From the IMG/VR virus record IMGVR_UViG_3300028886_000029, positions 174,007-238,006 of that record: a stretch of 64,000 nucleotides of DNA; one strand, written 5' to 3'. Shown here one piece after another: positions 3,501 through 34,914 of this stretch (the first letter of the stretch is position 1; the number at the start of each line of letters is the position of its first letter). The DNA is from a virus (Duplodnaviria; Heunggongvirae; Uroviricota; Caudoviricetes). A program made the position numbers and the translations under genes. The notes under the pieces are model-generated. The model saw only the letters and a program-made list of their open reading frames with translations. It searched no databases and had not been told where the DNA came from.

Positions 3501-6446
3501 GAAATATTTCAAATCAGTACCTGAATATTTTTCTTTTTTATTGTCTTTAGAGTTATTTCTTTTGTTTGTACCGATTGAGAACAAGAAAAGATATGCCTTT
3601 GCCTCATTTGTGTTTTGTTTTTCATAAAACGAGCAATTTTTGAAAATACCATTTTTTTCAAGTTTTTTAACATTTTCATTATCCCACAAACCAAATGTTA
3701 AACTTAACACATCTTTATTTGTGATAACACCATAATATGTGTTTTCATTAATCTTACTAAATTCTTTAACTTTGTCCCAAGTGTATCTTTTTTTATCAAT
3801 ATCTTCATATTTTTTCTCACAAAAATCCCCAGTATATTCCACACCAATATTGTCATTATCATATTTTAATGTCTTAAAAATATGTTTATTCTCTTTTTCG
3901 GTGTTGGAAAAATATGTTTTTAAATCAGAATTACTCTCATTAAAAATGCCTTGTTTGGGAAGTATGGCCTCCTCAATATTTTTCTCCACATTCTGAAAAT
4001 AATTACCGTATTCCTTTATAACAAAATCATCTTTAACACTATTACTTGAATTTGTATCTAATAATATGAACTGTGAAGAACCATTTTTTACATCTTCAAA
4101 ATGTTTCTTAATTAAGTTAAAATCACTTGTCTTTGGATATTGTTTGTTAGGTATAAAAGTATAATTACCATTTTTATCAATAATTCCCTTACCACCATTA
4201 TCAATTAACCATGGTGGTGTGTTTTTTGAATCAACAGAACCAACAGTTTCGTTTACTAATTCACTTGCCTTACCTTTTATTAAGAAACCTCTTAGTTCAT
4301 CAGACATATTTGAACCGAACGCCCTGTATATGTTCAATGTTTCAACATAAGACACCCATATTAAAAGATTACTGACATTATCATTCCATTTGTTGTTGTA
4401 AAACGCATAGAAACATCTTAAGACAAATGTCGCTGTTATTAACTGTGCCTTTGTCTTATCATCTTTATTAGAATCAGCGATATATTTATATGGGTTTTTA
4501 TATGTGAGATTATCATAATTACCCATATCATATAATGTTAACGGAACAAAATCCCTTTCACTGATATCACTTTCAGAGACAGTGCTTGAGTCACCGTTAT
4601 TTTCCTGTTCTTTCTTCTTTTGTTCTTCAAACGCCTTTAATGTCTCACCAACATCATTTTCGTAGTCATTTGCAGCGTTAAGCATTCTCACAACAAATTT
4701 AGTCTCCTCAGCTATTGGTAAAGACTTACCTTCACCTTCAGGCCATGCTACCACAGTCCTGACTTCTTTATTAACAGTCTCTTCTTTTAAACATAATGGA
4801 TATGGTGGAACAATACTGGTTCTGTCTTTCACAAAATCAAAGTCTATCCACTGACTAAACGGACGTGATGTCACTGGTCTTACATTATTCTCAATGTTAT
4901 GCAACGTATTATAATATGAGTGTACAAATGTGTCCAAATGTGCGAAAAGTATTTGAAACACATTTTTAATACTTAAGTTAAAACCTAATTCCTCATTGAC
5001 CTTTTTAATGTGTAGTTCAGTTAATTGTTTGTTAACTTCACCCTCCACATTTCTCTCCTCCTCAATGATTCGTTTTAATTCCTCAATAACACCATTTTCA
5101 ACCAAATGAATATAATATATATCATTTGGCTTACTATCATCATCAAAACCAAACGCTTTCTCTATTACGGTATTACTGACATTGTATTCCCTATCCTCAA
5201 TAGAAAGAACATTATCTCTTCTGAATGTAAACCCGTTTCCTTCACTGTCATATTTAGTTACAGTAATATTGTTATTATCTTTTTTGTCAACAATATATTT
5301 ACAAAAATAATCCTTTTTACTGTATTCTTCCTCACTGCCAAATGTACCAAAATCTTTATTGGGATATTTTTCTTTTAATTCTTTTAACCTGCCATAAAAC
5401 TTAACAATACTTTCCTTACTGATTTCAGCATGTATATTATTATCATTCCTTATTAAAAACTTATATGTTTTTCTACTATATTCAGTTTCCAAATCAACAA
5501 GGGGTAACTTGGTAAAAGGATACAACGCAATCACTTCCTCAATTATCTTGATGTTAGATTCAGCCTCCCCTATTTTGTTTTTCGCTTGTTCCTCCGCTTT
5601 CTTTTCTTCTTCATTCTTTGTTTCCAACGCGCTCTTCAACGCCTTATAAAACTCAACAAAAGTTAGCATTGTCGGTTTCCTGACATCACTACCAGTGAAC
5701 TTAAACCTTCCGTCTTTGTTTTCATCCCAATACTCTTTATCTATATAAGGCGCAATTGTTGTATATATTAACGGTATCTCAGTATATACGCCATACATGT
5801 TACCAATAAAATCAACACTTGCTATAATATTACCTGTCGCACCATCAAAATCAGCCCTAAATGATGACATCCTTAAATTATAACTCACAGGCTCACCATA
5901 AAATCCCTTTACTGTCAGTTTAAAAACAGGTGAGGGACAAGCGAAAATCGCTTTGAAAAATGACCCACTGTCAATTTGTGTTATGTCTCTTTCACCCCTT
6001 GCTTGCGCATCCATCATACCCTTTTCTTGCGCCATAAATAAGGATGTTCCTCTGACATCAACAAATCTTATGTTGACAATTGGATAAAACCACTGTTGAT
6101 ATGAGATATTTATTGACTCAATACCTAATGTCTCTTTATTTCCCCTGCCAATGTTTCCTGGTGTGACATCAGTATAATTCGTTGACAGATAACCTTGTTT
6201 GTTATCTTTAATATCAGTTCCACTACCCCCAAAAAATGATATTGTACCCTTGTCAGACGAAAACGACAAAGTTCTACCATTCTTACTTATATTACCACAA
6301 GAAAACCTATCTGAAATCGTTACTTCCAGATTAACACCCATAGAATAATCCTCATAAGGAAATGTTACCGCATTATCAGGTAAATTTAAGTTAGGATTTG
6401 TCGGTTCAATATAAAGAAACTTACCAACATTATGTACATCAGCCAT
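561..6446 (-). CDS. Baseplate hub / tail-associated lysin: hub regions, Cys-His amidase-like domain and C-terminal GH108 lysozyme
   Basis: 1961 aa in the tail operon. Hub-like YQCTVEMMGNVQIMPLMYFQL..GAYMVIAVEHNI segment, then HLCTLWA..GDVL..HTQFY, then GH108 signature SEGKSYVNDKDDKGGCTKWGVT with terminal KYLNGWLKRL. Confidence 0.8.
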   Translation of the reverse strand: MADVHNVGKFLYIEPTNPNLNLPDNAVTFPYEDYSMGVNLEVTISDRFSCGNISKNGRTLSFSSDKGTISFFGGSGTDIKDNKQGYLSTNYTDVTPGNIGRGNKETLGIESINISYQQWFYPIVNIRFVDVRGTSLFMAQEKGMMDAQARGERDITQIDSGSFFKAIFACPSPVFKLTVKGFYGEPVSYNLRMSSFRADFDGATGNIIASVDFIGNMYGVYTEIPLIYTTIAPYIDKEYWDENKDGRFKFTGSDVRKPTMLTFVEFYKALKSALETKNEEEKKAEEQAKNKIGEAESNIKIIEEVIALYPFTKLPLVDLETEYSRKTYKFLIRNDNNIHAEISKESIVKFYGRLKELKEKYPNKDFGTFGSEEEYSKKDYFCKYIVDKKDNNNITVTKYDSEGNGFTFRRDNVLSIEDREYNVSNTVIEKAFGFDDDSKPNDIYYIHLVENGVIEELKRIIEEERNVEGEVNKQLTELHIKKVNEELGFNLSIKNVFQILFAHLDTFVHSYYNTLHNIENNVRPVTSRPFSQWIDFDFVKDRTSIVPPYPLCLKEETVNKEVRTVVAWPEGEGKSLPIAEETKFVVRMLNAANDYENDVGETLKAFEEQKKKEQENNGDSSTVSESDISERDFVPLTLYDMGNYDNLTYKNPYKYIADSNKDDKTKAQLITATFVLRCFYAFYNNKWNDNVSNLLIWVSYVETLNIYRAFGSNMSDELRGFLIKGKASELVNETVGSVDSKNTPPWLIDNGGKGIIDKNGNYTFIPNKQYPKTSDFNLIKKHFEDVKNGSSQFILLDTNSSNSVKDDFVIKEYGNYFQNVEKNIEEAILPKQGIFNESNSDLKTYFSNTEKENKHIFKTLKYDNDNIGVEYTGDFCEKKYEDIDKKRYTWDKVKEFSKINENTYYGVITNKDVLSLTFGLWDNENVKKLEKNGIFKNCSFYEKQNTNEAKAYLFLFSIGTNKRNNSKDNKKEKYSGTDLKYFLLREGAYYWRRRELEKNNKRIDPIVGNYPGFTNTEEVVPCLKDGWLKSLFNREFNVVSLIENQKKEYISWKDFQDERLLNGVTEAREENLIDYFIDFATSNNSVFSEFRKLEGEVSDEEYDKLQRKLVSFLTSKVSYIDYGKPISDGKSEFGVDKYATTYSMVLSNIEKIYTPVEGEDTTDQTNGGENTDDLNTGVVNDDDIRLSTYLMLKNMYDKFFANLSEDSFTMGKPDNEYEKFLFVDTYYNPIGDRLLCNGQYLCDIIKNTIFKANNTMNIPEKLDKYYSVFEFMSEVCQKNNLTFLALPQKFGMSVNENGVSDIENMFKPHPFNSKIFNNTPITGSYVALYPYTPSERLDIRDDSGQYGYKSDGFDITDNSNDLPVSLKTLEDTDKAIPAFAVSFGKQNQSFFKNISLTTSNQQITEHSIIAQMDISGRRSMSEGPAESTIYGQDLYRVYSNYSYQCTVEMMGNVQIMPLMYFQLNNISMWHGAYMVIAVEHNIVAGNMTTKFTGVRVNRNAIPFVKNGYIYMHDGQASTYTGDESDTHDEGSTKNGDVGVNNDTGENVSLGSYKTLGTGYDNSNQYKVEDESANQSRKRAVTEAVKRNFKKCFHPKNDDGTYKHLCTLWAFNLARDFSKKYAFVKDDNCKQVSSETGNDGPKNPKLYEKLEDLGYTQVAAFDGVPSNEITSNIDAMHFEYGDVLLYFGSGGDSAVTKSMHTQFYVGDAYKKGVEGYDSNINIRAGDSYECSCGWASDMLNNYGTKFVYAGRAREHSGTWVVKLFRLLDTSMTNVKSPSEPKKEETEVEHTPSSTTGGGTAKKKRIENFIKDSEGKSYVNDKDDKGGCTKWGVTIGTLSSVMGEKKTCEDVKNMTAEEWQVVFDYFYNRMMIDGINNSSIALLVYDMGWGSGIVNAIKHVQRCLGCIDDGIMGNETLNAINSGNPKETFDKLWKMREQWFIDMKQPKYLNGWLKRLNRITFEY

Positions 6447-20533: not shown

Positions 20534-22207
20534 CTATTTAAAGCACATCTCATATCTATATTTCCCACAATCCCATATTTTACTCAAATCTAATTTTTCT
20601 CTTGTTTCTTTTTCAGTTAAATTATAAGGTAAATTGTATTTTCTTTTTACACTTTTTTTTCTGAAAAAATATTTGTTAATTCTTTCTGTTGGTTTATCAT
20701 TTATTACATAAGTGTATTCCGGTTCCATTTCTTTTTTTAAAACAAACCCCAAATTTTCCACAGTTTTTTGTGTGAAATGTGAAAACCTTCTGTCCACAAA
20801 TGTTATAATTTTTTGAGGATTATATTTTTTAACAAAAAAATTCAATAAACCTTTATTGTCTTGACAAACATAATTATTGTTTTCTACATATGACATTATC
20901 CATTCACCTTCTTTTGAAGACTTGTAAAAACACATAACACTAACCAAGACATTGTTATAAAAACATCCAATATATTTACCGGCATTGTACTTTTCTTTTA
21001 GTGAATTTTCTTTTAAAAAAATATTAGCAGTTCCTCTATCTATTTCTTTAAAAGAACATCCTTCATTATTAACAAGAAAACAATCTTCCTTTTTAAACTG
21101 CCTCTTAAAAATATTAAATAAAATATCCTTGTGTTGTAAATACTCATCCTCAAATATGTGTATTAAACCAATACCATTTTCTTCACATAATACAGTCTTA
21201 CTTAAATGATAATTTTTCATTTTATTTTTCCTTTCTGAATGCCAATATAAACCATCAAACTCAATCCCAACTTTATATTGAGGTAAATATATGTCTATCT
21301 CCCTACCATCGCCTAAAACATCCCTATCATGTTTAATAACATTATCTTTACCAATTAAACCACATAAAAAACCATAAATTTCATTTTCACCCCTTGATTC
21401 AATCACACCACATTTGGGACAACCATGACCCGATAAATGGTCATTAGGTGTGATAAAAAACCTGCCGTGTTCAGGACAAATTATAGATACCTTTGTTTTT
21501 GCTTTTTCATAATTAACTTCTCTATAATCATATTTATCTCCATGTATTTTTTTTGATTTTTCAATAAATTCTTCGGTTGTTAATCTATGTAACTTTCCTT
21601 TACTAATATTACCACATTTCGGACAACCTTGATGCTTATGGTAGTGTTTATATGGTGTTTGCCAAAATTCACCATGTTCAGGGCATATTATACATACTTT
21701 AGTTTTACTATTGGTATATTGTACTTTACTGTAATCATATTTATCACCATGAACTTCTTTAAATTTCTTTATCCACTCTTCATTATCTAAACCAATTCCC
21801 TTACATTTTGGACAACCTTGTTTACTGTAAATATGCGCACAGGGTGTCATCCAAAACTCACCATGTTCGGGACATATTATGCACACTTTAGTACTACTGT
21901 TAATATAATTTACTTTACTGTAATCATATTTATCACCATGAACTTCTTTCGCCTTATCAATAAACTGCTGAACACTAAACCTGCCAAATCTTGCTCTTTT
22001 TAAATTAGCACACTTAGGACATTCATTTCTTAAATGTTCTGAAGGTCTTTGCCAAAATTCCCCATGCTCATTTCCTTCATTATCTTTCTCATGACATATT
22101 ATACATACTTTAGTGCTACTATTAATATAGTCTACTTTACTATAATCATACTTATCACCATGAACTTTAATAGCCTTTTCAATAAATTGTTCTTTTCTGT
22201 TACCCAT
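20534..22207 (-). CDS. Hef-like homing endonuclease: zinc-ribbon repeats, PD-(D/E)xK nuclease, GNAT-like C-terminus
   Basis: Four HGDKYDY..V.IIC..HG.F..GCPKC-type repeats; EIDIYLP..GIEFDGLYWHS; IWDCG C-terminus. Confidence 0.75.
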   Translation of the reverse strand: MGNRKEQFIEKAIKVHGDKYDYSKVDYINSSTKVCIICHEKDNEGNEHGEFWQRPSEHLRNECPKCANLKRARFGRFSVQQFIDKAKEVHGDKYDYSKVNYINSSTKVCIICPEHGEFWMTPCAHIYSKQGCPKCKGIGLDNEEWIKKFKEVHGDKYDYSKVQYTNSKTKVCIICPEHGEFWQTPYKHYHKHQGCPKCGNISKGKLHRLTTEEFIEKSKKIHGDKYDYREVNYEKAKTKVSIICPEHGRFFITPNDHLSGHGCPKCGVIESRGENEIYGFLCGLIGKDNVIKHDRDVLGDGREIDIYLPQYKVGIEFDGLYWHSERKNKMKNYHLSKTVLCEENGIGLIHIFEDEYLQHKDILFNIFKRQFKKEDCFLVNNEGCSFKEIDRGTANIFLKENSLKEKYNAGKYIGCFYNNVLVSVMCFYKSSKEGEWIMSYVENNNYVCQDNKGLLNFFVKKYNPQKIITFVDRRFSHFTQKTVENLGFVLKKEMEPEYTYVINDKPTERINKYFFRKKSVKRKYNLPYNLTEKETREKLDLSKIWDCGKYRYEMCFK

Positions 22208-22979: not shown

Positions 22980-24653
22980 ATGAACAAAGAAGAATTTATA
23001 ATAAAAGCAAGAGAAATACATGGTGACAAATATAACTATGATAAAGTTGAATATGTCAACAAATCAACCAAAGTTTGTATAATTTGTCCTGAGCATGGAG
23101 AATTTTGGCAGACACCTAAAGCACACATCATACAAGGTTACGGATGTAAAAAATGTGGAAGAAAAATCTGTGCCGAAAAAACAAAAAAAACCACTGAGAA
23201 ATTTATTGAGGAAGCAAAAGAGATACATGGTGACAAATATGATTATTCAAAAGTGGAATATACCAATGCTTTCGAAAAAGTATGTATAATATGTCCAGAA
23301 CATGGCGAATTTTGGCAGACACCACATGACCATCTTAAAGGTGTTGGATGTCCTTCTTGTGGGAATTCATTAAAGGGACAAACCAAAAAACTGACACAAG
23401 ATGAGTTCATTAAGAGGGCAAGAGAAATACATGGTGATAAATATGACTACAGTAAAGTAAAATATATTAATAGTAATACTAAAGTTTGTATTATATGTCC
23501 TGAACATGGTGAATTTTGGATGACACCAAGTTGTCATTTAAATGGACAAGGGTGTAAAGATTGTGGATATAAAAATATTTCACAAAAAAATAGAACAAGC
23601 TTAGATATATTAATAAAAAAATTTAATATTATTCACAACAACAAATATAAATATAATAAAATGGAATATCAAGGTACTGATATTCCAATAACAATTACAT
23701 GTCCTGTTCATGGTGACTTTCAACAAAGACCACATGACCATTTATCGGGTCATGGTTGCCCTAAATGTGGAGTAAGATTATCCAAGGCTGAAAATGAGAT
23801 ATATGAATATTGTCAAAGTTTATTTTCTGATGAAATAATACAAGGTGACAGGTCAATAATTAATCCGTTTGAATTGGATATTTATATACCCAAAACTAAA
23901 ACCGGTATTGAGTATCATGGTCTCATTTGGCATTCCACTAAATACAGAAAAGACAAAAATTATCATCTTAAAAAACTCAACGCATGTAAAGAAAAGAGTA
24001 TTAAATTACTTCAGATATTTGAAGATGAGTACATCAATCATAAGGACATTGTTTTTAACAAAATAAAACATATTCTTGGAAAATGTGATAATTCACCTAA
24101 AATTTATGGCCGAAAATGTGATGTTAAAGAGATAAACAAAAACACCGCAAGGGATTTTCTTGACAAATTTCATATTCAGGGATTTGTCCCATCCACAATA
24201 TATTTAGGGTGTTATTATAATAATGAATTAGTTGGTGTAATGACGTTTAAACAAGAAAAGAAAAAGTGTGACAAATGGGAATTAACAAGGTTTGCAAGTA
24301 ATTATAATTATATTTGTTGTGGTGTTGGTGGTAAACTATTTAGTTATTTTGTAAGGAATTACAATCCCACTGAAATAAAATCATTTGCCGACAGAAGATG
24401 GACTGTAGATGAGGAAAATAATATTTATATACAATTAGGTTTTAAGTTTGATTCTTACACAAATCCAGATTATCATTATTTCAAATTTGAGGATGGTTTA
24501 ATCAGACAACACAAGTTTGGTTTCAGGAAACAGATATTACATAAGAAATATGGTTTACCACTTACAATGACCGAAAAAGAAATGACTGAAAAATTAGGTT
24601 ACGAAAAAATATATGATTGTGGCTTGATTAAATATGTATGGAAAAAGGACTGA
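22980..24653 (+). CDS. Hef-like homing endonuclease, paralog of 20534-22207
   Basis: Four zinc-ribbon repeats; ELDIYIP..GIEYHGLIWHS; GNAT-like FHIQG..LVGVMTF..WELTRFAS..GGKLF..SFADRRW; IYDCG. Confidence 0.8.
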   Translation: MNKEEFIIKAREIHGDKYNYDKVEYVNKSTKVCIICPEHGEFWQTPKAHIIQGYGCKKCGRKICAEKTKKTTEKFIEEAKEIHGDKYDYSKVEYTNAFEKVCIICPEHGEFWQTPHDHLKGVGCPSCGNSLKGQTKKLTQDEFIKRAREIHGDKYDYSKVKYINSNTKVCIICPEHGEFWMTPSCHLNGQGCKDCGYKNISQKNRTSLDILIKKFNIIHNNKYKYNKMEYQGTDIPITITCPVHGDFQQRPHDHLSGHGCPKCGVRLSKAENEIYEYCQSLFSDEIIQGDRSIINPFELDIYIPKTKTGIEYHGLIWHSTKYRKDKNYHLKKLNACKEKSIKLLQIFEDEYINHKDIVFNKIKHILGKCDNSPKIYGRKCDVKEINKNTARDFLDKFHIQGFVPSTIYLGCYYNNELVGVMTFKQEKKKCDKWELTRFASNYNYICCGVGGKLFSYFVRNYNPTEIKSFADRRWTVDEENNIYIQLGFKFDSYTNPDYHYFKFEDGLIRQHKFGFRKQILHKKYGLPLTMTEKEMTEKLGYEKIYDCGLIKYVWKKD

Positions 24654-24669
24654 TATAATATCAGTCCTT
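24645..24669. terminator. Hairpin between convergent genes
   Basis: AAGGACTGATA-TAA-TATCAGTCCTT. Confidence 0.65.
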
Positions 24670-24673
24670 AATT

Positions 24674-25345
24674 TTACATCCTCACTCCTTGTTTATTCAT
24701 TAATTGTTCAGCATATTCCTGAAAAGTTTCACAACCTGCATTATTCCTGATATTGCAAAAATAACTATAAACATCTTTTATGTTAAGTATTTTATAATTA
24801 CTTAATACACTATCCAAACCGACATCTACCCTTAATTCATTTGATTGTATATTTAAGTTATCAATAGAACCATGGCAATGACCATGTACCATACAAGAAC
24901 CATGTGTCCGTCTATTCCAAGTTAACAGTGGATAATGACAAATTTCAATACAAAATGTCTCATTAGAATCAATCCAATCATATTGTTTGTAGTTAAATTT
25001 CACTTCTTTTATTTGATTAACTGATTCAAAATAATTTTCAAGACCAACCAATGACTTATCATGATTACCAACAATAAGATGTTTCTTACCATTTAATTTC
25101 CTAAGTAGTTTTTCGGTATTTTCCCTATTAGCAAAAGAAAAATCACCAAGAAAATAAATAGTGTCTTGTTTTTTAACGGTTTTGTTCCATAATTCAATAA
25201 GCCATTGATTTTGTTTTTCAACGGCTTCATTAACATTTTCCATATCCAATTCACTCAAACCAAGAATATTCCTTCTTTCTTCCTGAAATTTCAAAATATT
25301 ATAATGGAAAAAATGAAAATCAGATGTTATCCAAGTATTTTGCAT
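24674..25345 (-). CDS. Calcineurin-like metallophosphoesterase
   Basis: SDFHFFH, LGDF, GNHD, HYP, HGHCH. Confidence 0.9.
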   Translation of the reverse strand: MQNTWITSDFHFFHYNILKFQEERRNILGLSELDMENVNEAVEKQNQWLIELWNKTVKKQDTIYFLGDFSFANRENTEKLLRKLNGKKHLIVGNHDKSLVGLENYFESVNQIKEVKFNYKQYDWIDSNETFCIEICHYPLLTWNRRTHGSCMVHGHCHGSIDNLNIQSNELRVDVGLDSVLSNYKILNIKDVYSYFCNIRNNAGCETFQEYAEQLMNKQGVRM

Positions 25346-25347
25346 AA

Positions 25348-26073
25348 TTAAAAAATTTCTTTGTTACCAAAATTAAAAACTATTTCACCATAACCTTCTT
25401 TTCTTCTCCTAAGTTCATTTAAAGTATCCGCACATGGATTCATATAACACTCAAACTGTATTGGGTAAGAAAATCTTTTTAGTCTTTCAGGATTTTTATA
25501 GTCAAGATTATTTGACTTAATCATTGATGTATAATACTCATTGTTAGGATTATTCAAATCAATATCATCAGATATTGCCTTACCGACAATTTCACCATCT
25601 TTATTAATATAATATGGTCTTGCATTAGGCTCCTTAATAAGAACACTATCCTGATTATATTTTCCGCACATTTGTATTGCAAACAGTTTTAAATCAGAAA
25701 AATCAGTTAGTTCACCATTGTTTTTGGTGTGATTGAAAACAATAAATGATGGTTCATAACTATCTACAACACCGTCTGTCCCATGATAACCGCCATATAC
25801 AGGAAAATAACTATATTGTGATGTTTTTAAATCATTAATAAGGTTTTTTGTGTTTTTATTATTTGTCTCATTATCCAGACCACTTCTGTTTGCTGAAACA
25901 ATAACAAAACCATCCTTACCATGTTTATTAATAATTCTACTTAATGTTTCCTCATTAAGTGTTTGTAATGAGTATATATTATTAATATTATACAACTCAT
26001 TAAAAATTGTCTTTTCCTTTACCTGTTCACCAATTCGTGACATCAGGTTTTTTATCTCATTTAATTGTGTCAT
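25348..26073 (-). CDS. SAM lyase (T3 SAMase-like) with an N-terminal leader
   Basis: FVIVSANRSGL..N..L..L..GGY..E.S..A..C..NQDSVL matches the recalled T3 SAMase pattern YVLVSAFRSNL..GCY..EE..LAC..EQDCVL. The ATG at 26073 abuts the upstream stop. Confidence 0.7.
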   Translation of the reverse strand: MTQLNEIKNLMSRIGEQVKEKTIFNELYNINNIYSLQTLNEETLSRIINKHGKDGFVIVSANRSGLDNETNNKNTKNLINDLKTSQYSYFPVYGGYHGTDGVVDSYEPSFIVFNHTKNNGELTDFSDLKLFAIQMCGKYNQDSVLIKEPNARPYYINKDGEIVGKAISDDIDLNNPNNEYYTSMIKSNNLDYKNPERLKRFSYPIQFECYMNPCADTLNELRRRKEGYGEIVFNFGNKEIF

Positions 26074-26074
26074 A

Positions 26075-26359
26075 TTATCCTTCTTTAATTTCATCAAAAT
26101 CGGTTGTCCAACCGGCATTGGTTATTTTGTCAATATTCGAATTAAAAAGAATAAAATTACCAATAGTATAATCACCAAAACCACCATAACCTCTCTTTTC
26201 AAAGGTAAGAATACCATCTTCAATCAACTTATTCATTTTTGCCTCGGTATTTCTATATAAATATTCTCTATGTGAGCAATAACCAACTGTATCTGTTGTT
26301 ATATAATAAAATTCAAAACAACCATAATAATACATTTTAGATACATGTAGTTTTTTCTC
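26075..26359 (-). pseudogene. 3' half of a phage gene interrupted by the IS607-type element
   Basis: EKKLHVSKMYYYG... joins in frame with ...KKKKEW of 29533-29799 when the element is removed. Confidence 0.75.
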
Positions 26360-26540
26360 CGAAGAATTAAACATAGTCAAAAGTAGTCACACTACTTTCT
26401 ATACATTCACTACCTACATTTTGTAGGCTTCTTCGAAACGATAACAACACTTCCTTCACCTTTTCACGTTTAAGTCTCTTAGGCTCAAAAGCACCATTAT
26501 CCAATTGTTTTAAGAGCGATTCTCGTAACACGGTTACAAG
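26340..26540 (-). ncRNA. Putative TnpB omegaRNA (scaffold overlapping the tnpB 3' end, plus flank-derived guide); 5' limit approximate
   Basis: Hairpins CCTACA-AAA-TGTAGG (26413-26427) and AAAGTAGT-GTG-ACTACTTT (26380-26398); CGAAGAA pairs with terminal TTCTTCG; position at the element's right end. Confidence 0.6.
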
Positions 26541-28007
26541 CACTCTGTTCCTTATATTCTTTGCAGCGTTAAAGTCTGCATTATCTTTATATCCACATTC
26601 AATACATTCAAATGTCTCTTGGTTTGGTCTGTTCTCATCCTCAATACATCCACAAATGGGACACATCTTCGATGTATAACTTGCTTGAACTGTTGAAACC
26701 GCAATATCATATTTTCTTGCAATATGCTCAACTTCTTGTTTAAGGCTACTCAAGCCAAGGAATTTAACCTTTCTGTTGTAATTTATATCCTCATTATCCT
26801 TATCTTTAACATAGCATTTGCCAAATCCATTATCAAGGTCTTCCATTACAATATGCCCCACACCTTGTGAATGTAATGCCTTACACATATCGGCTATAAG
26901 TTGCTGTTCAGACTTAATCATCTTGGATTTGAGCGTATCGAGTTTCTGCTGTTTACGTTTACCTACTTTGTATTCTTTATCTTGTACTTTTAGTTTATCT
27001 ATTTCAAGAGATAGTTTACAGAAATCGTTAACAAGTTTTCTATCATAATCGTAAGTTGTTTCATCTGATAGGCTGAATAAGTTATGTTTGCAATTCACAT
27101 CAATACCAATAGTATCACCTTTGACTTGAGGTGTATATCTTTCACCATCCTTACATAAGTGTATATTTACTTGATGTTCCTTCTCATTAAAAGTAATTGT
27201 ATATTCGTAATCGGGATTCTTCTTTCTGTAATCCTTCATATTTCCGTGCCACCCTTTGTTGAATGTAACTGGTATGTCGAATGACTTCCTACCAATACCA
27301 CTTAGGCTTATGAACGAATTAATCCTTGAACCAAACTTGCTGTTATAATCAATTATTCTTGTTTTTCTACATCTGCCACTGAATGTTAATGACTTGAATT
27401 CAATAGGATATTCAGAATAATGCTTAACAATGCGTTTTCTTTTTGAATGGGCAAGATTATAGAGACGTTCAAATCCGAATTTATTACAGCATCTTAATAT
27501 GTTACTATAGAACTCACGTTTCTTCTCGTCACACTTGCTTATATTGTCATTGATGTAGTCTATTGTATTCTCATTACCGTATCTTGCAAGATAAGTGAGG
27601 CAGTTAGATAAAGACGTTTGTTTCTTATCAAAAACTACTTTTTTCAAGTCACCTTTATTATGCTTCTTAGTATCACGCTTATAAAACTCAAACCCTTTAA
27701 ATGTAACAACTTCAAAGACAAGTTTACGTTGTATTGCATCGAATTTATTTTGATAGCAAGTGAATACTTGTGTATAGAGTTGTGCATCAAACGAACTTGG
27801 TATGACATCTTTGAAACGTTCTCTCATTTCTTTAAGGAATTGGAACTTATTGTATTCCAAGAAATGTAAGAGGTTATCGTTGACGTATTGTGATACTGCG
27901 TTTTTATGATTTCGAATAAGTACAGCAAAGTCGTGTAACTCATCATATTTCTGACGAGTTAATTCATTTGAATGGAATATCTTTGTGTACTTACTCTTTA
28001 TTATCAT
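26367..28007 (-). CDS. tnpB: TnpB RNA-guided nuclease (long IS607 type)
   Basis: RuvC I GIDVN, RuvC II VMEDL, TSKMCPICG..FECIECG zinc finger, RuvC III NADFNAAKNI; 546 aa. Confidence 0.9.
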   Translation of the reverse strand: MIIKSKYTKIFHSNELTRQKYDELHDFAVLIRNHKNAVSQYVNDNLLHFLEYNKFQFLKEMRERFKDVIPSSFDAQLYTQVFTCYQNKFDAIQRKLVFEVVTFKGFEFYKRDTKKHNKGDLKKVVFDKKQTSLSNCLTYLARYGNENTIDYINDNISKCDEKKREFYSNILRCCNKFGFERLYNLAHSKRKRIVKHYSEYPIEFKSLTFSGRCRKTRIIDYNSKFGSRINSFISLSGIGRKSFDIPVTFNKGWHGNMKDYRKKNPDYEYTITFNEKEHQVNIHLCKDGERYTPQVKGDTIGIDVNCKHNLFSLSDETTYDYDRKLVNDFCKLSLEIDKLKVQDKEYKVGKRKQQKLDTLKSKMIKSEQQLIADMCKALHSQGVGHIVMEDLDNGFGKCYVKDKDNEDINYNRKVKFLGLSSLKQEVEHIARKYDIAVSTVQASYTSKMCPICGCIEDENRPNQETFECIECGYKDNADFNAAKNIRNRVLVTVLRESLLKQLDNGAFEPKRLKREKVKEVLLSFRRSLQNVGSECIESSVTTFDYV

Positions 28008-28009
28008 TT

Positions 28010-28171
28010 TTAATCCTCCAAATTATCAACATCTTGGCTTGAATGACCTAGTAATTCTTTATACAAGAGAATGTCATCTTCATTAAAAGAATCTTTATTC
28101 TTAAATTGTTCATATTCATTTTTAAGCCAAGAAATGTCTCCGTTTTCTCTTATTTTAATATCAACGTCCAT
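28010..28171 (-). CDS. Small acidic cargo ORF (53 aa)
   Basis: MDVDIKIRENGDISWLKNEYEQF...NLED*; overlaps the upstream stop and ends 2 nt before the tnpB ATG. Confidence 0.6.
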   Translation of the reverse strand: MDVDIKIRENGDISWLKNEYEQFKNKDSFNEDDILLYKELLGHSSQDVDNLED

Positions 28172-28343
28172 ATATCATTTTCATTTCATCATTTATCATT
28201 TCTTCAATAATAATGCTATATTCTTTATTCGTCTCTATTTTATTCTTTACTAATTTCAAGTAATATAAGCATTCTATCAATGAATGGTTTCCAAAATCAT
28301 CTGTATCATCTTCTCCTGATATACAAATTTCTTTCTCATTCAT
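28161..28343 (-). CDS. Small cargo ORF (60 aa; alternative ATG at 28352)
   Basis: MNEKEICISGEDDTDDFGNHSLIECLYYL...; ATGAATGA overlap with the upstream ORF stop. Confidence 0.55.
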   Translation of the reverse strand: MNEKEICISGEDDTDDFGNHSLIECLYYLKLVKNKIETNKEYSIIIEEMINDEMKMIYGR

Positions 28344-28476
28344 TTTTTTCATCAAACATTTTATAAACACAAATGTCTGATACACTTTCAACTGCACAAT
28401 ATATAGTATATTCATTACGCATATATCCGTACTGTTCAATATACTTTGTTTTGAATCCGCCTGTTTTAAATGCCAT
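28336..28476 (-). CDS. Small cargo ORF (46 aa)
   Basis: MAFKTGGFKTKYIEQYGYMRNEYTIYCAVESVSDICVYKMFDEKNE*; overlaps both neighbours. Confidence 0.55.
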   Translation of the reverse strand: MAFKTGGFKTKYIEQYGYMRNEYTIYCAVESVSDICVYKMFDEKNE

Positions 28477-28594
28477 TTTTCTCGATTTTTATTTCACAAT
28501 GTTGACAAAACAAATGATTATTTACATCCATATGTGAACAAAAAGTTGGAATACACTCTTGTTTATACAATTTACACCACTTATAATATTTCAT
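28466..28594 (-). CDS. Small Cys/His-rich cargo ORF (42 aa)
   Basis: MKYYKWCKLYKQECIPTFCSHMDVNNHLFCQHCEIKIEKNGI*; ATGA overlap with the tnpA stop. Confidence 0.55.
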   Translation of the reverse strand: MKYYKWCKLYKQECIPTFCSHMDVNNHLFCQHCEIKIEKNGI

Positions 28595-29220
28595 TGTTCT
28601 TGCTTTTGTTTACGTTTCTTTCTGTTTTCTTGTGCTCTCAATGAGTATACCTTACCACTAAAACTTGCAATCAACATCATCATATCATTTACAAGTTCTT
28701 CTTGCTCAGTGTATTCCTTCTTGTCAAGTAGTTCTATCTCAACACCATAACTGTTAAAGAAAAACTCTATTAGGTTATATTGAAACCTTGTAAGTCTATC
28801 CTTATGCTCAATTACTACTTTGTTAATTTTTCCATTCACAACCAAATTGCACAGTTTGATGAAACCTTTACGCTTGTCATTCAACCCACTTCCCATATCC
28901 TTTATAATGTACTCAACCTTGTATTTCTTCTTCGTACAATATTCGAATATCCTTGAAGATTGTCTGTCAATGTCACCGTGTTCTTTTTGGTCAGGTGTAG
29001 AACACCTTGCATAAGTGGCAACTATTATATCATCACTATCATTTGTGGTTTCATTACTATTTTCACCGATTAATAGTTCAATGTCAGATTGTTTATAACG
29101 CCTATGTCCTCCTTCTGTTCTTAAGGCAATTAGTTTACCGCTATTGTCCCAACGTTGAAGTGTGGATTTACTGACATTAAGTAAATGTTCAGTTTCTTTT
29201 AATGTCAGTAGTTTATCCAT
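28591..29220 (-). CDS. tnpA: IS607 serine transposase (MerR-type HTH plus resolvase)
   Basis: LNVSKSTLQRWD..G..RTEGGHRRY; YARCS..Q; GSGLN..RKG; HKDRLTRF; ELVND..SFSGKVY. ATG at 29220 preferred. Confidence 0.92.
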   Translation of the reverse strand: MDKLLTLKETEHLLNVSKSTLQRWDNSGKLIALRTEGGHRRYKQSDIELLIGENSNETTNDSDDIIVATYARCSTPDQKEHGDIDRQSSRIFEYCTKKKYKVEYIIKDMGSGLNDKRKGFIKLCNLVVNGKINKVVIEHKDRLTRFQYNLIEFFFNSYGVEIELLDKKEYTEQEELVNDMMMLIASFSGKVYSLRAQENRKKRKQKQEQ

Positions 29221-29443
29221 CTTCGTTTTCTGTTTTTTCAATTATATCAAGTGTTGCTTGTTTTGCACTGTCTATATGTTTCTGTAATTCTTCTATTGAC
29301 AATGTTTCAAGTCCATCCATCAATGGATACTCGTTACCATCGTCACAAGTATACAACATATTTTCAGTGTCAATCGAAACAACTTTAATATTCTTATGTT
29401 TCATAAGTTCACTTATTCTTTTATTATTTATCTTAGTCTTCAT
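29213..29443 (-). CDS. Cargo ORF (76 aa) at the element's left end
   Basis: Inside the element, overlapping the tnpA start; TATTTAT at 29446-29452 immediately upstream. Confidence 0.65.
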   Translation of the reverse strand: MKTKINNKRISELMKHKNIKVVSIDTENMLYTCDDGNEYPLMDGLETLSIEELQKHIDSAKQATLDIIEKTENEDG

Positions 29444-29532
29444 ATATAAATATCACGAATTTTTAAAAAGTTTGCTTATTTTTGAATATTTTTTGATATA
29501 AATGAATATTTTTCATTCGGCAGATGTTTCTC

Positions 29533-29799
29533 CCATTCTTTCTTTTTCTTTTCAATCCATTCATCTGTTTCAGGATTATCCTCAGGCTTCAAATAAACAT
29601 TACTTATTGTCAAACCTTTCACTCCATTAACTTCACTAATTTTAAACAACTTATTATTATCCTCAATAAACTGCATCAACTCAGTCTTTTTTACACCAAG
29701 TTCCTTGGCAGTATCGGTTAGTACAGCATAATTTTTACATTCTATTTTCTGAATCAGATTAACAATTCTTTTAATTTCAGTTATTTCAAGTTTTCCCAT
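29533..29799 (-). pseudogene. 5' half of the interrupted gene (HTH-like N-terminus)
   Basis: MGKLEITE..LTDTAKELGVKKTELMQFI..EWIEKKKKEW; reads through into the element end and stops at 29476. Confidence 0.7.
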
Positions 29800-29844
29800 A
29801 AAAAATATATTTAACATTATATTACTTACAAAAATCATGCCGAA

Positions 29845-30603
29845 CTATCTCCAAAAACAATAAAGACACTTATTATTACATTGGTGTGGTTTGTCTTTAA
29901 TTAATTCAGTCTTATTTTCACTACAGCCACAATGTGTTCTCACATTTTTATTGCCGATAAGTGTAATTTTGTCAGTCAAACCCAATATTTCAATATCTTT
30001 TTGGGAAAGACATGGTGTTGTTTTAAACTCAAACGGTTCCCCAACCGGTGGCTCACCACACATCTCAAGCCTCATATCCAACATTTGACAAACTTCAAAA
30101 ATTTTTGAAAATGCTTTCCACCTATTATCTTCATCAGCATGAAAAGTGTTATATGGTAACTTAATATTCTCATTTTTAAACCTTTCTTTAACGTGTTCAT
30201 ACATATCAAGAAATGATATCCTAACTCTTTTTATACCTAAATCCCTAAATAACTCAATAACACTAATCGCTGTCTCAACACCTTTTTCAGTTGGCACAAT
30301 AGGGTCAACTCTTAAAACAATTTGTTTAACAGGAAAACCTTTATCAATAAGTTTCTTTACTTGTTGATAACTCCATTCTTTTTTAGGTACAAGTGGTTCT
30401 ATTTTGCTACCACCCATTCCAGTCACAGTACAGTGTAAGATTATTTTCTCCTTATTCTCTACTATTTTATCAATAAGTTTATCAGTCAACCTTTTTGTTA
30501 TTATAAGATTTCCTGCATATAAATTATCGAAAATTTCAAGGTGAAAACTTGGGTCTGAAATCTCAGTTGTACCAAATCTTTGTGTTTTATCAGATAACGC
30601 CAT
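29845..30603 (-). CDS. DUF1848-like / radical-SAM-related Fe-S protein
   Basis: ITK, TVTGMG..IEP.VP, LRVDPI, ISFLD, C.E, CGC and C-terminal CNNKCLYCFW. Confidence 0.7.
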   Translation of the reverse strand: MALSDKTQRFGTTEISDPSFHLEIFDNLYAGNLIITKRLTDKLIDKIVENKEKIILHCTVTGMGGSKIEPLVPKKEWSYQQVKKLIDKGFPVKQIVLRVDPIVPTEKGVETAISVIELFRDLGIKRVRISFLDMYEHVKERFKNENIKLPYNTFHADEDNRWKAFSKIFEVCQMLDMRLEMCGEPPVGEPFEFKTTPCLSQKDIEILGLTDKITLIGNKNVRTHCGCSENKTELIKDKPHQCNNKCLYCFWR

Positions 30604-31027
30604 TTATTTTAAGTTTTACAATTATATTTTCTATTGTGTTTTCAAATGACCCAAACCAATCCTCATCCCTCAATATCTGTTCATATTTGCTGTCATTGTC
30701 ATTCCTTTTCCACACTGTATAAAAATAACCTGTTCTATCATTCAACGCAAAAGTATATACAGGTATCATCTCAATGACAATATTGTATTTCTCAGACAAC
30801 CAATCAAAAACCTCAGCATATGTTGGTGCTTTATAATATTTTCCATATATATAATCCTCATATTCAATTAACTGCCCTTCTTTATATTTTCTTACACCAA
30901 GATTATTATCAGTAGTACCTTCAACACCGTCCTCACCTGCGTAACTTGGTGTGTCACTATAATCCGATACTCTGTTATCTAAAATCTTTGCGATTTTAAA
31001 ACTAACTATTTCACAATATTTTTCCAT
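30590..31027 (-). CDS. Hypothetical phage protein
   Basis: VSFKIAK..APTYAEVFDWL.EK.NI pattern; tiled with neighbours. Confidence 0.6.
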   Translation of the reverse strand: MEKYCEIVSFKIAKILDNRVSDYSDTPSYAGEDGVEGTTDNNLGVRKYKEGQLIEYEDYIYGKYYKAPTYAEVFDWLSEKYNIVIEMIPVYTFALNDRTGYFYTVWKRNDNDSKYEQILRDEDWFGSFENTIENIIVKLKINGVI

Positions 31028-31039
31028 GTTACAAATAAA

Positions 31040-31831
31040 CTATATATTTTTATTAATCACTTTTATTGCCTCAGGTGGTATGTTGTCAAAAGTCCAAATG
31101 GCTCTAACTAAATTAGGGTCACCATAAAATTTTATATTACCACATTTCTCAGTATCTATTTCCAAAAGTGTATACGGAACATCTCTCTTTTTATTATTAT
31201 TTGTTGAACTATATAACTCATCAGCGAAAAAAGTATAGTTTACATCTAAATTTCTATCCAAAAAACAATATATTCTCTCAGGATGCTCACCTAATTTGTT
31301 TCCTGAATGTGGTATTAATCCGTTCTTAAGAATTTTATCTAACTTATTAGTTGGTGTTAAATGATAAACATATTTTGATGTTTTAATTATATCTTCTTGT
31401 CTGTTTTTTTCAAAAGAATATACAAAAAAATTCTTATTTTTGTAATATGGATTAACAACCGCCAATGTCCAACCACAAGCTGTGAAAAATTGTTTTATCT
31501 TTTCAATATCTTTAAATTCTTTGGGAATTATCATTGATATACTACTAACCTCATCAGAACCATATTCATGTTCATTTTTCCGATATGTGTCAAAAGTAAT
31601 ACCAATATCATTATTGTTATTCAAAAAATCATGTTCAAAACCAATATCATATTCTTTTCTAAGTATATTGAATATTTTTTCAGCATCATATGATTTAAAA
31701 ACACCTTCAGTAATTATCATATCAATTGTTTGTGGTAACTCAGTAAAATACCTCCGCAATTGTCCATTTCTTTCCGATATGATATCTATTTTTTCTATCA
31801 ATTTTTTTATTTTGTTAATTTCTTTGTCCAT
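31040..31831 (-). CDS. ADP-ribosyltransferase-fold protein (Tpt1/KptA NAD-lobe-like)
   Basis: VYHLT..ILKNGL..RIY..LLEID..FY.DPN..T.DNIPP.AI. Confidence 0.6.
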   Translation of the reverse strand: MDKEINKIKKLIEKIDIISERNGQLRRYFTELPQTIDMIITEGVFKSYDAEKIFNILRKEYDIGFEHDFLNNNNDIGITFDTYRKNEHEYGSDEVSSISMIIPKEFKDIEKIKQFFTACGWTLAVVNPYYKNKNFFVYSFEKNRQEDIIKTSKYVYHLTPTNKLDKILKNGLIPHSGNKLGEHPERIYCFLDRNLDVNYTFFADELYSSTNNNKKRDVPYTLLEIDTEKCGNIKFYGDPNLVRAIWTFDNIPPEAIKVINKNI

Positions 31832-31872
31832 TTTTTTTGTGTAAAATTACAAAATTTTTATCTTAAAAACAA

Positions 31873-31902
31873 AAAAAGTCACTAAAAATTTAGTGACTTT
31901 TT
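31873..31902 (-). terminator. Terminator after the tail sheath gene
   Basis: AAAAAGTCACTAAA-loop-TTTAGTGACTTTTT. Confidence 0.75.
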
Positions 31903-31923
31903 CGTAAGTATTTAATTATCAAT

Positions 31924-34914
31924 TTATTCTTCGAATTCTATTTGTTCTGGGTATACAACAAATGAAATCGAGATTACCTCTAATGCAGGTGTAGGTTTGA
32001 CAAGTATCTTACATGGGAGAATATGTTGGTCTCTTGTCTCAGGTGTTGATTCAGTAACAACCCTATAATCAACTATACCTCTATTTGATTTAACATCAGC
32101 AAGAATTGGCTCAACCAATGACCTGAATTGTTTTTCAAGTGTTGCATCATATTGTTCAAAGATAAGGTGTTTAGCCGCCTCTGTGACAAGTTTCTTAATT
32201 CTAAGCATTAGTCTCCTGACATTAATTCTATTAAGAGGACTTTCTTGTGTATAGAGGGTCTTGTTACCCCATACTTTAACGCCATCCTGTGCGAAAGACT
32301 TGATTGGATTAATTCTACCTTCGTAAAGTGTATCCTCATCATACAATGTTGTTTTGATATCTGCTTTAATACAGTCAACATTACCTCTTTCAGTACCAGC
32401 TGGTGCGAACCAAGGGAAACTGTTGTTATCAGTAGCGGCCATATTTCTAACAACATCCTTAGTCACAGGAAGAACAGTATACATTTTAGCGTCCGCATCA
32501 TAATATCTCACCCATGGCCAATAAGTACAAGCGTATGATGATGTCAACTCACTGTCTTCAAGTTCGTCAACTACAGCCTCAGGTGTCTTATCCTCATTGA
32601 CATCCTTAGGTGCGTTGATAATATAGAGGGCATCACCGCCTCTACCGTCCTCACTATCCTCAATCATATCAAGGGCATCCTCAACAAGAAGTGTATGATT
32701 TGAATAGTCAACACCTGGTGTTGCGAAAAGATTGATATCAACATCCTGAGGATTAGCGAACTGTTTATAACCTGCAAGATAAGCGTAATAGTCAGTATTG
32801 ATGGCATTTACAGGAAGACCTAATTTAAGTGTAGGGTCAAGCGCAAGTTCAGTTGAACTAATCACACTGAAAGGACAGCCACTAACAATAGCGTATTTAG
32901 ATGCTTTGTAATCGTCTTTATTGGTTCTTTCAGGTCTGTAAATATCCCAACCATCGAAACCACCATAAGGATAAACAGTGAATTTTCTCAAATTAATATC
33001 CTCATAAATTGTCCCGTCAACATAGTCCTCATTGAAAAGTCTTGGAATTTTTACGGACTGTGCGGCTTTCTGCATAGGGTCAACAGTTGTAAATGTATAA
33101 CCACTTTCTGAGTCAACAAAGACTGAAACACCTGACATTGGATTTTCTACTGTCTCACCTGATATGTCAGTCAAAGTCCTATAAGGCATTGAAAGAATTG
33201 CGTCAAGGTGGAAACCGTTAGTAATCTTATTAGGGTCAGCGTCACCGTTTCCGTTCTCATATGCGGTCACACCCTTATAGTTAAGAACATCAACATCAAG
33301 AATCTCATTGTTAAGACCAAAATATTGTCTCTTAGGTTTAATAGCGTCATTGAAAATCGTGTTATAGGCGATGTCAATCCTACCCTCAGCACCAAGTCCA
33401 TAAGTTGGCATTGGATAACCAAGGAAACCGCAAGGTACACAAGATTCAATACCATCCTCATCAGCGATTTCAACTGTCACATATTTTGACTTGGCTACAT
33501 AACCGCCATCAAACGTACCAATTTTATAACCAATATAATTATTGGCACCAGGAACCATTGAACAGTTAATGAATTTCTCCAAAACAACAGGTGAAGCATC
33601 TGTGTCATAGAAATCCCTAATCCAAATATCAAACAATCCCTCATCAGGTCTAATCCTTTGGATAGACACTTTCACTTGATAATTAGCGGCGTTACCGTCA
33701 GAAATTGTATAGAATTTGAAAAGTTTCTTCACATTAATTGACTTATTTGTCGCTTCCTTAACCTCAGAAACAATCCAAGGGGTTTGGGCACATCTGTAAG
33801 TCTCTTTATAATTGGTGTAATCTTCGTCGTCTTTGATTTTCACACCATCACCATTATTAATAGCCTCAAACTTAACAGGAGTTGCCACTTTCGCCAACAC
33901 TTTTCTTTCTTTGAAAGTATATTTGGTTTTAGCGGTATTGTCATATGAATCCCCATTAATAATGAATTCATCCGTATATTCTCCCCTTTCATTCTCTTTT
34001 AGCACACCTTTTTTACCATCCCATACATACCCATAAGAAAGAGTATCACCTGATGTTAATGTCTGTCCTGATTCAACAATAACCTCAGATAAAACATCTG
34101 CATTTTGAAGATAGTACTCATATGCGTAATCATATACAGCCTCAATGAACAATGGAGCCGTACCAACAAGAGGGTCAATTGAGAAAACATTATAGATGTA
34201 AGACCTGTCTGATGGATTTAATGAGACATTGTAATTAACTGTGGTTTCAGCACTCACACCACCTGTCCACTGTGTGTAAGTAACATTAAGACCGAATTTA
34301 CCAATTTCAGTTTTTCCGCTTGCATCGGCATATGCGCCTTTGGTTCCATCGCTTAACTCAACGACAACACCTTCAAGTGGAACCTCTGTCGTCTCGCCTG
34401 TAACAACACAAAGTGCGTCATACTCAGGTGCCTCAAAAGAAACAACCTCAACTTTTGTGACATATGGATTAAAAGCCTCTTGTTCCGCTTTTTCGCATTC
34501 ACCACCCTCAGTTTTAGCGTTATAATCAGCCTTAGACCTAAGGATAACCAATGGGAATTTCTTGTCACCTACGGTTGCATAGACACCGAAAGCACTACTA
34601 TTCTCATAACCTGAAAGACCAAGCACTCTCACAACATTAAGATTCTTGGATTCTTTAAGATATTCTTTAGCAACATAAGGCAACTCGTATTTAGGTAAAC
34701 CACTTCCCTTATATTTTTCAGGTGAAGTTCCACCAAAGTAGTCTACAAAGTCAGCCCAATCAGTAACAGGTACCGCTTGGAACGCAGGACCTTTCAAGGT
34801 TTCACCTGCAAGACCAAGATTAGTAATACCAAGACTTTTGGCTGAGTAGAGGACATCCTTTTCTTCTGTATAAACACCTGGTGAGACATGTCCACCTCTT
34901 GCATCACTTATCAT
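31924..34914 (-). CDS. Contractile tail sheath protein
   Basis: SPGVYTEE..GETLKGPAF..VVRVLG; WFAPAG.ERG; INPI; VWGNKTL; LNRINVRRL; KPT.ALE.I. Confidence 0.95.
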   Translation of the reverse strand: MISDARGGHVSPGVYTEEKDVLYSAKSLGITNLGLAGETLKGPAFQAVPVTDWADFVDYFGGTSPEKYKGSGLPKYELPYVAKEYLKESKNLNVVRVLGLSGYENSSAFGVYATVGDKKFPLVILRSKADYNAKTEGGECEKAEQEAFNPYVTKVEVVSFEAPEYDALCVVTGETTEVPLEGVVVELSDGTKGAYADASGKTEIGKFGLNVTYTQWTGGVSAETTVNYNVSLNPSDRSYIYNVFSIDPLVGTAPLFIEAVYDYAYEYYLQNADVLSEVIVESGQTLTSGDTLSYGYVWDGKKGVLKENERGEYTDEFIINGDSYDNTAKTKYTFKERKVLAKVATPVKFEAINNGDGVKIKDDEDYTNYKETYRCAQTPWIVSEVKEATNKSINVKKLFKFYTISDGNAANYQVKVSIQRIRPDEGLFDIWIRDFYDTDASPVVLEKFINCSMVPGANNYIGYKIGTFDGGYVAKSKYVTVEIADEDGIESCVPCGFLGYPMPTYGLGAEGRIDIAYNTIFNDAIKPKRQYFGLNNEILDVDVLNYKGVTAYENGNGDADPNKITNGFHLDAILSMPYRTLTDISGETVENPMSGVSVFVDSESGYTFTTVDPMQKAAQSVKIPRLFNEDYVDGTIYEDINLRKFTVYPYGGFDGWDIYRPERTNKDDYKASKYAIVSGCPFSVISSTELALDPTLKLGLPVNAINTDYYAYLAGYKQFANPQDVDINLFATPGVDYSNHTLLVEDALDMIEDSEDGRGGDALYIINAPKDVNEDKTPEAVVDELEDSELTSSYACTYWPWVRYYDADAKMYTVLPVTKDVVRNMAATDNNSFPWFAPAGTERGNVDCIKADIKTTLYDEDTLYEGRINPIKSFAQDGVKVWGNKTLYTQESPLNRINVRRLMLRIKKLVTEAAKHLIFEQYDATLEKQFRSLVEPILADVKSNRGIVDYRVVTESTPETRDQHILPCKILVKPTPALEVISISFVVYPEQIEFEE

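Follow-up and report, generated by a model that had tools for sequence, protein, structure and literature searches.

The 64,000 nucleotides analysed here, called the window below, are positions 174007-238006 of a 363-kb virus record (C1), and they contain a 3,173-bp insertion sequence of the IS607 type that encodes a transposase, TnpA, and a TnpB of 546 amino acids. The carrier is a giant (jumbo) cattle-gut phage of lytic type, one of whose genes is split by the element. The explanation that best fits the observations overall, to which we give a probability of about 0.62, is that the element inserts at TGGGA, that its intact TnpB, directed by a guide from the right flank, cuts copies of the site that lack the element, and that the element is then copied into the break. 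The anatomy of the element, its junctions, the empty allele, the target motif, the conserved RNA fold of the right end, the left-end tips that equal the element's own target, and the purifying selection on TnpB are established. Nearly all of the sequencing runs that contain the stretch are bovine gut metagenomes. Genes for a tail sheath and a tail tube adjoin the split-gene locus; a close relative of the sheath was not found among named phages.

TnpA matches the IS607 transposase model NF033518 at 184 bits (cut-off 110), as well as the Pfam families HTH_17 and Resolvase. On the minus strand the order is left end, an open reading frame (ORF) of 76 residues, tnpA, a stretch of some 580 bp taken up by small ORFs, tnpB and right end; as in IS607 insertion sequences, tnpB sits 3′ of tnpA and overlaps the right end. 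There is a GG at both ends and in the target, with no terminal inverted repeats, and in the family the GG is extended to GGA. TnpB scores below both curated cut-offs (32.6 bits vs 350 for IS607_TnpB, NF038280; 83.5 vs 100 for guided_TnpB), and thus appears to belong to a distinct TnpB clade.

A preliminary description of the window, made from the sequence alone, placed the minus-strand junctions between GAATGGG and AGAAACATCTG on the left (TGGG at 29535-29532) and between TTCTTCGG and AGAAAAAACTACATG on the right (GG at 26360-26359). Both are as it wrote them, and excision in silico restores the ORF that it foresaw, of 183 residues from MGKLE and reading ...EW-EKKLHVSK.... The empty allele, which it had proposed to look for in related genomes, exists: one locus out of 15 candidate stretches (L001, an IMG/VR contig) is a real uninterrupted copy, joined exactly as predicted. 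This copy is an ORF of 180 residues with a 9-bp indel elsewhere and no mismatches from -86 to +70 around the junction, and its protein gave no match in NCBIfam, PHROG or PADLOC. The IS607 identity and the insertion site are borne out by the TnpA model, the junctions and the empty allele. In addition, contigs from four of eight runs (X4, X5 and X9/X11) skip exactly 3,173 bp; X4 and X5 come from one study and X9/X11 are one data set filed twice, which leaves two independent data sources. The empty-site joint is not in the contigs of X1, X3, X6 or X10. X4 also has low-depth contigs of the element's cargo.

A feature overlooked in the preliminary description is that the two junctions have seven bases in common, GGAGAAA, at 29533-29527 and 26360-26354. 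The crossover can therefore not be located from this copy alone, and the 183-residue ORF is restored for any crossover within the seven bases. An assembly artefact at the left-end tip was considered and rejected, as X1 contigs read through the left and the right junction of the filled site with 0 differences; it may be, however, that the window was assembled from X1 itself.

The window element belongs to a family. The TnpB query retrieved 41 loci in IMG/VR, many of them on contigs of 100-390 kb, and 80 of 119 loci were kept from the metagenome query; a search with the end motif gave 42 stretches, and a scan with the left-end pattern gave three loci, all on contigs already in the family set. 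Two loci were found in 185,579 prokaryote genomes by a scan for six peptide patterns, which detects close relatives only: one close match on a 360-kb contig of a metagenome-assembled genome, probably such a phage, and one partial match at 42%. Named phages hold no close TnpB (213 records, all below 60% and none covering 80%). Close relatives are thus confined almost entirely to large contigs from phages or metagenomes, and most of the family elements are without a full tnpA.

The ends of these elements define the target motif. Of 156 right-end matches, 13 had variant or truncated ends and were not parsed; the other 143 yielded 79 different flanks, that of the window among them. TCTTC is followed by GGA in 66 of these, by GA in 8, GGG in 3 and TGA in 2, and the sequence is random beyond. 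GGA therefore occurs in 66 of the 69 right ends with GG, compared with a background of 30% (P 1e-30), and GA in 76 of 79. Left ends were modelled in 50 elements and had the GG anchor in 43, of which 10 were dropped as a second end type or of doubtful register; the two G's at the junction are fixed by this anchoring. TGGGA is found at 24 of the 33 left junctions kept. Thus the G-rich TGGG of the preliminary description stands as part of the motif, while its GG core calls for revision, in that the family fixes GGA or GA and the A at position +1 pairs in the predicted scaffold. A separate clade with a shifted transposon-associated motif (TAM) was considered and is not supported: a rapidly built tree of 49 proteins requires three changes for the GA-type right ends, as do shuffles.

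The right end is a structured RNA with a sharp conservation boundary, followed by a variable guide, as judged by prediction and covariation. The fold is strong (z -5.0, and -5.6 for the hairpin), and compensatory changes are seen in the hairpins of 73 non-redundant right ends. A guide derived from the right flank, as first described, agrees with a flank that is variable after the conserved end and matches the empty allele. The stem that closes the scaffold includes the A counted earlier as guide base 1: the pair 26437:26358 is formed in 72 of the 73 right ends, with a pair probability of 0.91, and the pairs beside it vary compatibly, including one compensatory A-U. The target has the +1 A in both canonical-site empty alleles (window/L001 and L018/L015). 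Given that GGA is family-wide and that the A closes the scaffold stem, the TAM is more likely TGGGA, with a guide one base later; on this evidence the balance leans modestly towards a scaffold that ends at the +1 A and a guide that starts GAAAAAAC at 26357. There are precedents for both features, in that the scaffold of ISXfa1 incorporates the first base of the flank (doi 10.1101/2023.08.09.552727), and in Cas-lambda2 the last scaffold base is paired, with no pseudoknot (PMC12141684). In the phage's own genome, the best match to the guide among TGGGA, AGGGA and GGGGA sites has 5 mismatches in 16.

Three observations weigh against this register. The U that partners the +1 A is an invariant base within tnpB codons, which leaves the pair with no covariation; three right ends have G at +1; and the empty alleles of two relatives (L024 and the L022 family) have T there. 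The first two would suit an element and drive identical to those of the clostridial CboIStron and of the preliminary description, with a GG core, a TAM of TGGG, a guide that starts with the A, and an A fixed solely by the site preference of TnpA. The clostridial precedent was cited correctly, the scaffold of CboTnpB ending in UCGG with a TAM of TGGG, and the right end of the window is likewise TCTTCGG. The stem, however, passes through the A in nearly all right ends, and the right ends of L024 and the L022 family have A where the relatives' empty allele has T, so that the A acts like a base belonging to the end of the element. We therefore regard a TGGG-only motif as somewhat unlikely.

Some further observations concern individual family members. 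Two miniature elements, L058 (194 bp) and L069 (239 bp), retain the two ends and, of tnpB, nothing but the guide-RNA part, and could supply guides in trans. Diverged duplications of 20-50 bp between left and right flank occur in L022/L023/L015 (about 5800 and 7650) and in L008/L035, and may be hybrids between insertions at two GGG sites that lie close together. A second element in L015 (minus strand, near 850) has a right flank resembling the 5′ end of a tRNA gene, and its guide would therefore be tRNA sequence. Diverged empty versions of the L021 site (L022:11871-11613, L023 and L133; 78% identity) have TGGT in place of TGGG, and are possibly escape alleles.

It is at the left end that the family carries probable traces of repair. 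In seven of the 33 elements, one of them the window copy, the left end opens with 5-8 bases that are the same as the element's own right flank, that is, its target. For identity over at least 5 nt, the expectation from shuffles is 0.42 (P<1e-4); the count is 7 of 43 when no rows are dropped. Compared with its sister L088, the window's left end is identical from +3 to +100 (98/98), and differs at +1 and +2, where each element matches its own target. For the window it is proven that the original target is what now forms the right flank, so that the left-end tip is the part that changed. The other 26 elements have no significant likeness to their target (P 0.07) and no duplication. The 7-bp repeat of the window copy looks like replacement of the tip. 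The bases are mostly replaced in register, not added. The tip scar is likely to be a footprint of cut-and-copy repair, and the simplest source would be a break a short way into the target, repaired with the filled copy as template. IS607 in recA Escherichia coli gave no duplications, and synapsis does not require the terminal 19 bp of the IS1535 left end (both PMC6188088); the tip could therefore tolerate overwriting.

The identity of tip and target might instead come from transposition itself, through a staggered cut by TnpA or homology-assisted insertion. The matched length is exactly 5 bases in four of the cases, and the junction chemistry is described as unresolved by the CboIStron authors (doi 10.1101/2023.11.20.567912). 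This origin is nevertheless improbable: 26 of the 33 insertions keep a common tip at unrelated sites, the replacement is in register, and the recA experiments are without duplications. A preference of TnpA for tip-like targets was also considered and is not supported (P 0.07 and 0.32).

The sequence of tnpB is that of an apparently intact nuclease gene. The three RuvC acidic residues, said to be intact in the preliminary description, are indeed present (D303, E389, D478). They do not vary among 36 of 36 family members aligned, their conservation across 104 is at least 90%, and the zinc finger is also intact. There is no stop in 105 of 111 full-length tnpB matches, duplicates included. In two subfamilies without TnpA the ratio of nonsynonymous to synonymous substitution rates (dN/dS) is 0.06 and 0.13, indicating purifying selection on TnpB there.

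On the basis of these observations, we propose the following sequence of events. TnpA would insert a circular intermediate at the GG/GA core within (T)GGGA, and the operon would be transcribed from a phage-type motif in the left end. With a scaffold that ends at the +1 A and a TAM of TGGGA, the element's own right end (TCGGA) would be spared. TnpB would cut element-free copies of the site, both excised sister genomes and co-infecting relatives, and copying of the element into the break would fall to phage recombination. The cut end would retain the TAM and some target bases, and would sometimes overwrite the left-end tip during repair, leaving the scar of 5-8 bp. The phage genome has a RecA-like match. 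Cut-and-copy has a precedent among IS607 elements in CboIStron (doi 10.1101/2023.11.20.567912), and a TnpB gene drive has been shown in plasmids (PMC11870625).

Homing between co-infecting phages is supported only indirectly. Near-identical elements occupy one site in flanks that are just 74-85% alike (L022/L023, L015/L118, L008/L158), which points to spread between phages. A more modest role is that TnpB merely restores the element after excision by TnpA, or helps an insertion to fix among the genome copies in one cell, with no need for drive between phages. This has been shown for CboIStron (doi 10.1101/2023.11.20.567912) and for multicopy plasmids (PMC11870625), and restorative repair would leave the same scars. 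The scars are, however, also found in TnpA-less and very short elements (L026, L058, L069, L117), TnpB is constrained in subfamilies without TnpA, and the divergent flanks hold near-identical elements; a purely restorative role is thus rather unlikely. It is also conceivable that TnpB eliminates rival phage genomes and is not copied into them, as in the marker exclusion described for phage homing endonucleases (PMC13565253), but this would leave the target bases inside the left end unexplained, and we consider it very unlikely.

Several points weigh against homing by cut-and-copy repair. The scars would look alike after co-infection and after repair between sister copies during a single infection. 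The synonymous divergence is near 1, so that tnpB genes have been exchanged and the selection cannot be dated to after the loss of TnpA. Different elements also occur in identical flanks (L021/L128), and mosaic recombination can therefore account for the shared elements. Converted targets are no more like typical tips than others are (P 0.32), so that a version based on microhomology gains no specific support. No circle joint was seen in the contigs of the eight runs, though contigs drop rare forms, and the empty alleles of the window's site have no escape mutation.

As for expression, the left-end motif TATTTATA precedes 34 of 400 phage ORFs in the sense direction, compared with 4 for its reverse complement, and 55 of 100 sites are intergenic, which suggests a phage-type promoter. 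A sigma-70 scan was at chance level. Contigs of the RNA run X3 cover the element; the contigs alone show neither transcription nor RNA ends. Translational rescue of the downstream half-gene by an in-frame ATG in the right end was rejected, as 14 of 22 long downstream ORFs are in that frame, against a genome background of 51% (P 0.17).

The predicted fold of TnpB is closest to that of Cas-lambda. The model, built from 104 homologues, has a predicted local distance difference test (pLDDT) score of 93.5, compared with 38.5 for a single-sequence prediction. Cas-lambda provides the top four fold matches (Foldseek and VIA-align; Z 19-21, 401-472 residues aligned, root-mean-square deviation 4.3-7.9), the best being 8dc2 (Z 20.9, deviation 6.4, 472 aligned); the Z scores of Cas12f (16.3), ISFba1 (15.8), TnpB 8h1j (15.5) and the longer Cas-phi (13.8) are lower. 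A Cas-lambda gene of 772 residues with a CRISPR array (about nine repeats of 36 bp) was noted at L037:4-1450 / L172:1498-3816. It lies 5 kb from a member of the TnpB family on a 339-kb phage contig, and has the RuvC-I motif G-x-D-x-N-x-K in common with the TnpB family (93 of 104 rows). Its alignment continues through the tail after RuvC as far as residue 524, while that of an ordinary TnpB from this genome ends at 489.

We put forward tentatively, as somewhat less than an even chance, that this is an IS607 clade specific to jumbo phages, driving between them by an RNA-guided nuclease with a tip that records each cut-and-copy, and that it is also the lineage from which phage Cas-lambda arose. 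The ancestry would account for the same fold, the same motifs and the stem-closed guide RNA in the same phages. Against the Cas-lambda link, the E-value is better for the ordinary TnpB (8e-15) than for Cas-lambda (7e-11), sequence profiles rank Cas12f first, and a profile of the N-terminus retrieves no Cas-lambda. A scan of the phage's own genome gave no Cas-lambda, though an empty answer of that scan is uninformative. There is no CRISPR array at the window element; an array-like repeat occurs in the available DNA of 4 of the 79 loci, in none of them at the element end. In L006:1680-7673 (also L103) a family element abuts a degenerate repeat of a phage CRISPR array, with neighbouring genes that by eye resemble type I cas3, cas6 and cas7.

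Table 1. Features of the split-gene locus and the IS607 element (window coordinates; TAM, transposon-associated motif; HTH, helix-turn-helix).
Feature	Position	Strand	Remarks
5′ half of interrupted hypothetical phage gene	29534..29799	-	starts MGKLE; 183 residues when uninterrupted
Target motif TGGG(A)	29531..29535	-	predicted TAM TGGGA, rival TGGG; from family left junctions and empty allele
Left copy of 7-bp GGAGAAA	29527..29533	-	left-end tip equals target +1..+5; likely repair scar
Left end	29445..29531	-	ATATTCA repeat 20 bp apart; phage upstream motif TATTTATA at 29452-29445
76-residue ORF	29213..29443	-	precedes tnpA in full-length elements; without family match
tnpA, IS607 serine transposase	28591..29241	-	HTH and resolvase domains; YARCS serine; ATG at 29220
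Variable cargo, small ORFs	28008..28590	-	87.5% identity to sister element L088
tnpB, 546 residues	26367..28007	-	RuvC D303/E389/D478; zinc finger; Cas-lambda-like predicted fold with C-terminal tail
Predicted guide-RNA scaffold	26358..26545	-	overlaps 3′ end of tnpB; closing stem 26437-26429 : 26366-26358; 5′ boundary provisional
Predicted guide, right flank	26340..26357	-	rival register starts at 26358; matches empty allele
3′ half of interrupted gene	26075..26358	-	from ORF reading and empty allele

The features of the locus are collected in Table 1. The 76-residue ORF is acidic and has 313 homologues but no family, in clusters that are virus-only where taxa are recorded; it is a possible regulator. 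Directly downstream of the split gene (25348-26118) there is a gene of the S-adenosylmethionine lyase family (PF23780), a possible anti-restriction gene. The tail tube gene is flanked by two ORFs of 557 residues (20534-22207 and 22980-24653) with repeated CPxHG motifs, which by eye are homing-endonuclease-like. Elsewhere in the same genome are three ordinary TnpB-like genes, two of them with a common right-end motif, and a second IS607-like tnpA (C1:85040-85825, 4763-5464, 26408-27196, 349529-349912).

A mechanism of this kind is already described for the clostridial IS607 IStron and for TnpB drive in plasmids; what the window holds is a phage-adapted variant. Among natural cases it is unusually complete, combining a Cas-lambda-like nuclease with an amended TAM and an indirect trace of cut-and-copy repair. 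Demonstrations of TnpB homing come from engineered assays in E. coli and from plasmids (doi 10.1101/2023.11.20.567912; PMC11870625). In a search of the accessible literature, we found no report of this phage family, of phage-to-phage TnpB homing or of target-converted IS607 ends, and no link between IS607 TnpB and the ancestry of Cas-lambda. The element is directly testable, since its guide, its target and its empty allele are to hand along with a TAM prediction that can fall either way. The tip scar would serve as a sequence-level marker of past cut-and-copy, one that metagenomes can be scored for. If the relationship is true, a compact relative of Cas-lambda without an array would become a candidate for the transposon ancestor that this editor still lacks.

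Among the closest known systems is CboIStron (doi 10.1101/2023.11.20.567912), which like the window element combines a serine TnpA with a TnpB, a right end ...TCGG, TGGG at the left junction and a guide from the right flank, and in which self-protection depends on C versus G, as it would here. The window element differs in the conserved extra A, the 546-residue TnpB, the 76-residue ORF with cargo, the jumbo-phage carrier, and in having no group I intron: there is no Rfam match to one in 24000-32000, and the first ORF is preceded by only about 90 bp. The natural tip conversion seen here is not mentioned in the available text of the CboIStron account. ISXfa1 (doi 10.1101/2023.08.09.552727) and ISFba1/RAGATH-18 (PMC11061315) are similar in having a G-rich TAM that matches the insertion site; their TAMs, as reported in the text available, are different (GGG, AGGAG or GAGGG), the TnpB of ISFba1 has 387 residues, and RAGATH-18 gave no match at the element.

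Cas-lambda (8dc2; Cas-lambda2 9izm/9izq/9izr) resembles the window TnpB in its fold, in G-x-D-x-N-x-K, in the tail after RuvC-III and in the paired last scaffold base (PMC12141684). The window TnpB is, in contrast, transposon-bound, has no array, is about 200 residues shorter and keeps a CCCC zinc finger, and the protospacer-adjacent motif of Cas-lambda2, TTR, is unlike the TAM predicted here (PMC12141684). Finally, the plasmid drive of IS605 TnpB (PMC11870625) and T4-type homing endonucleases (PMC13565253) resemble the proposed drive in cutting a competitor replicon that lacks the element. Unlike both, the window has an IS607 element in a lytic-type jumbo phage, in which each new insertion sets the target.

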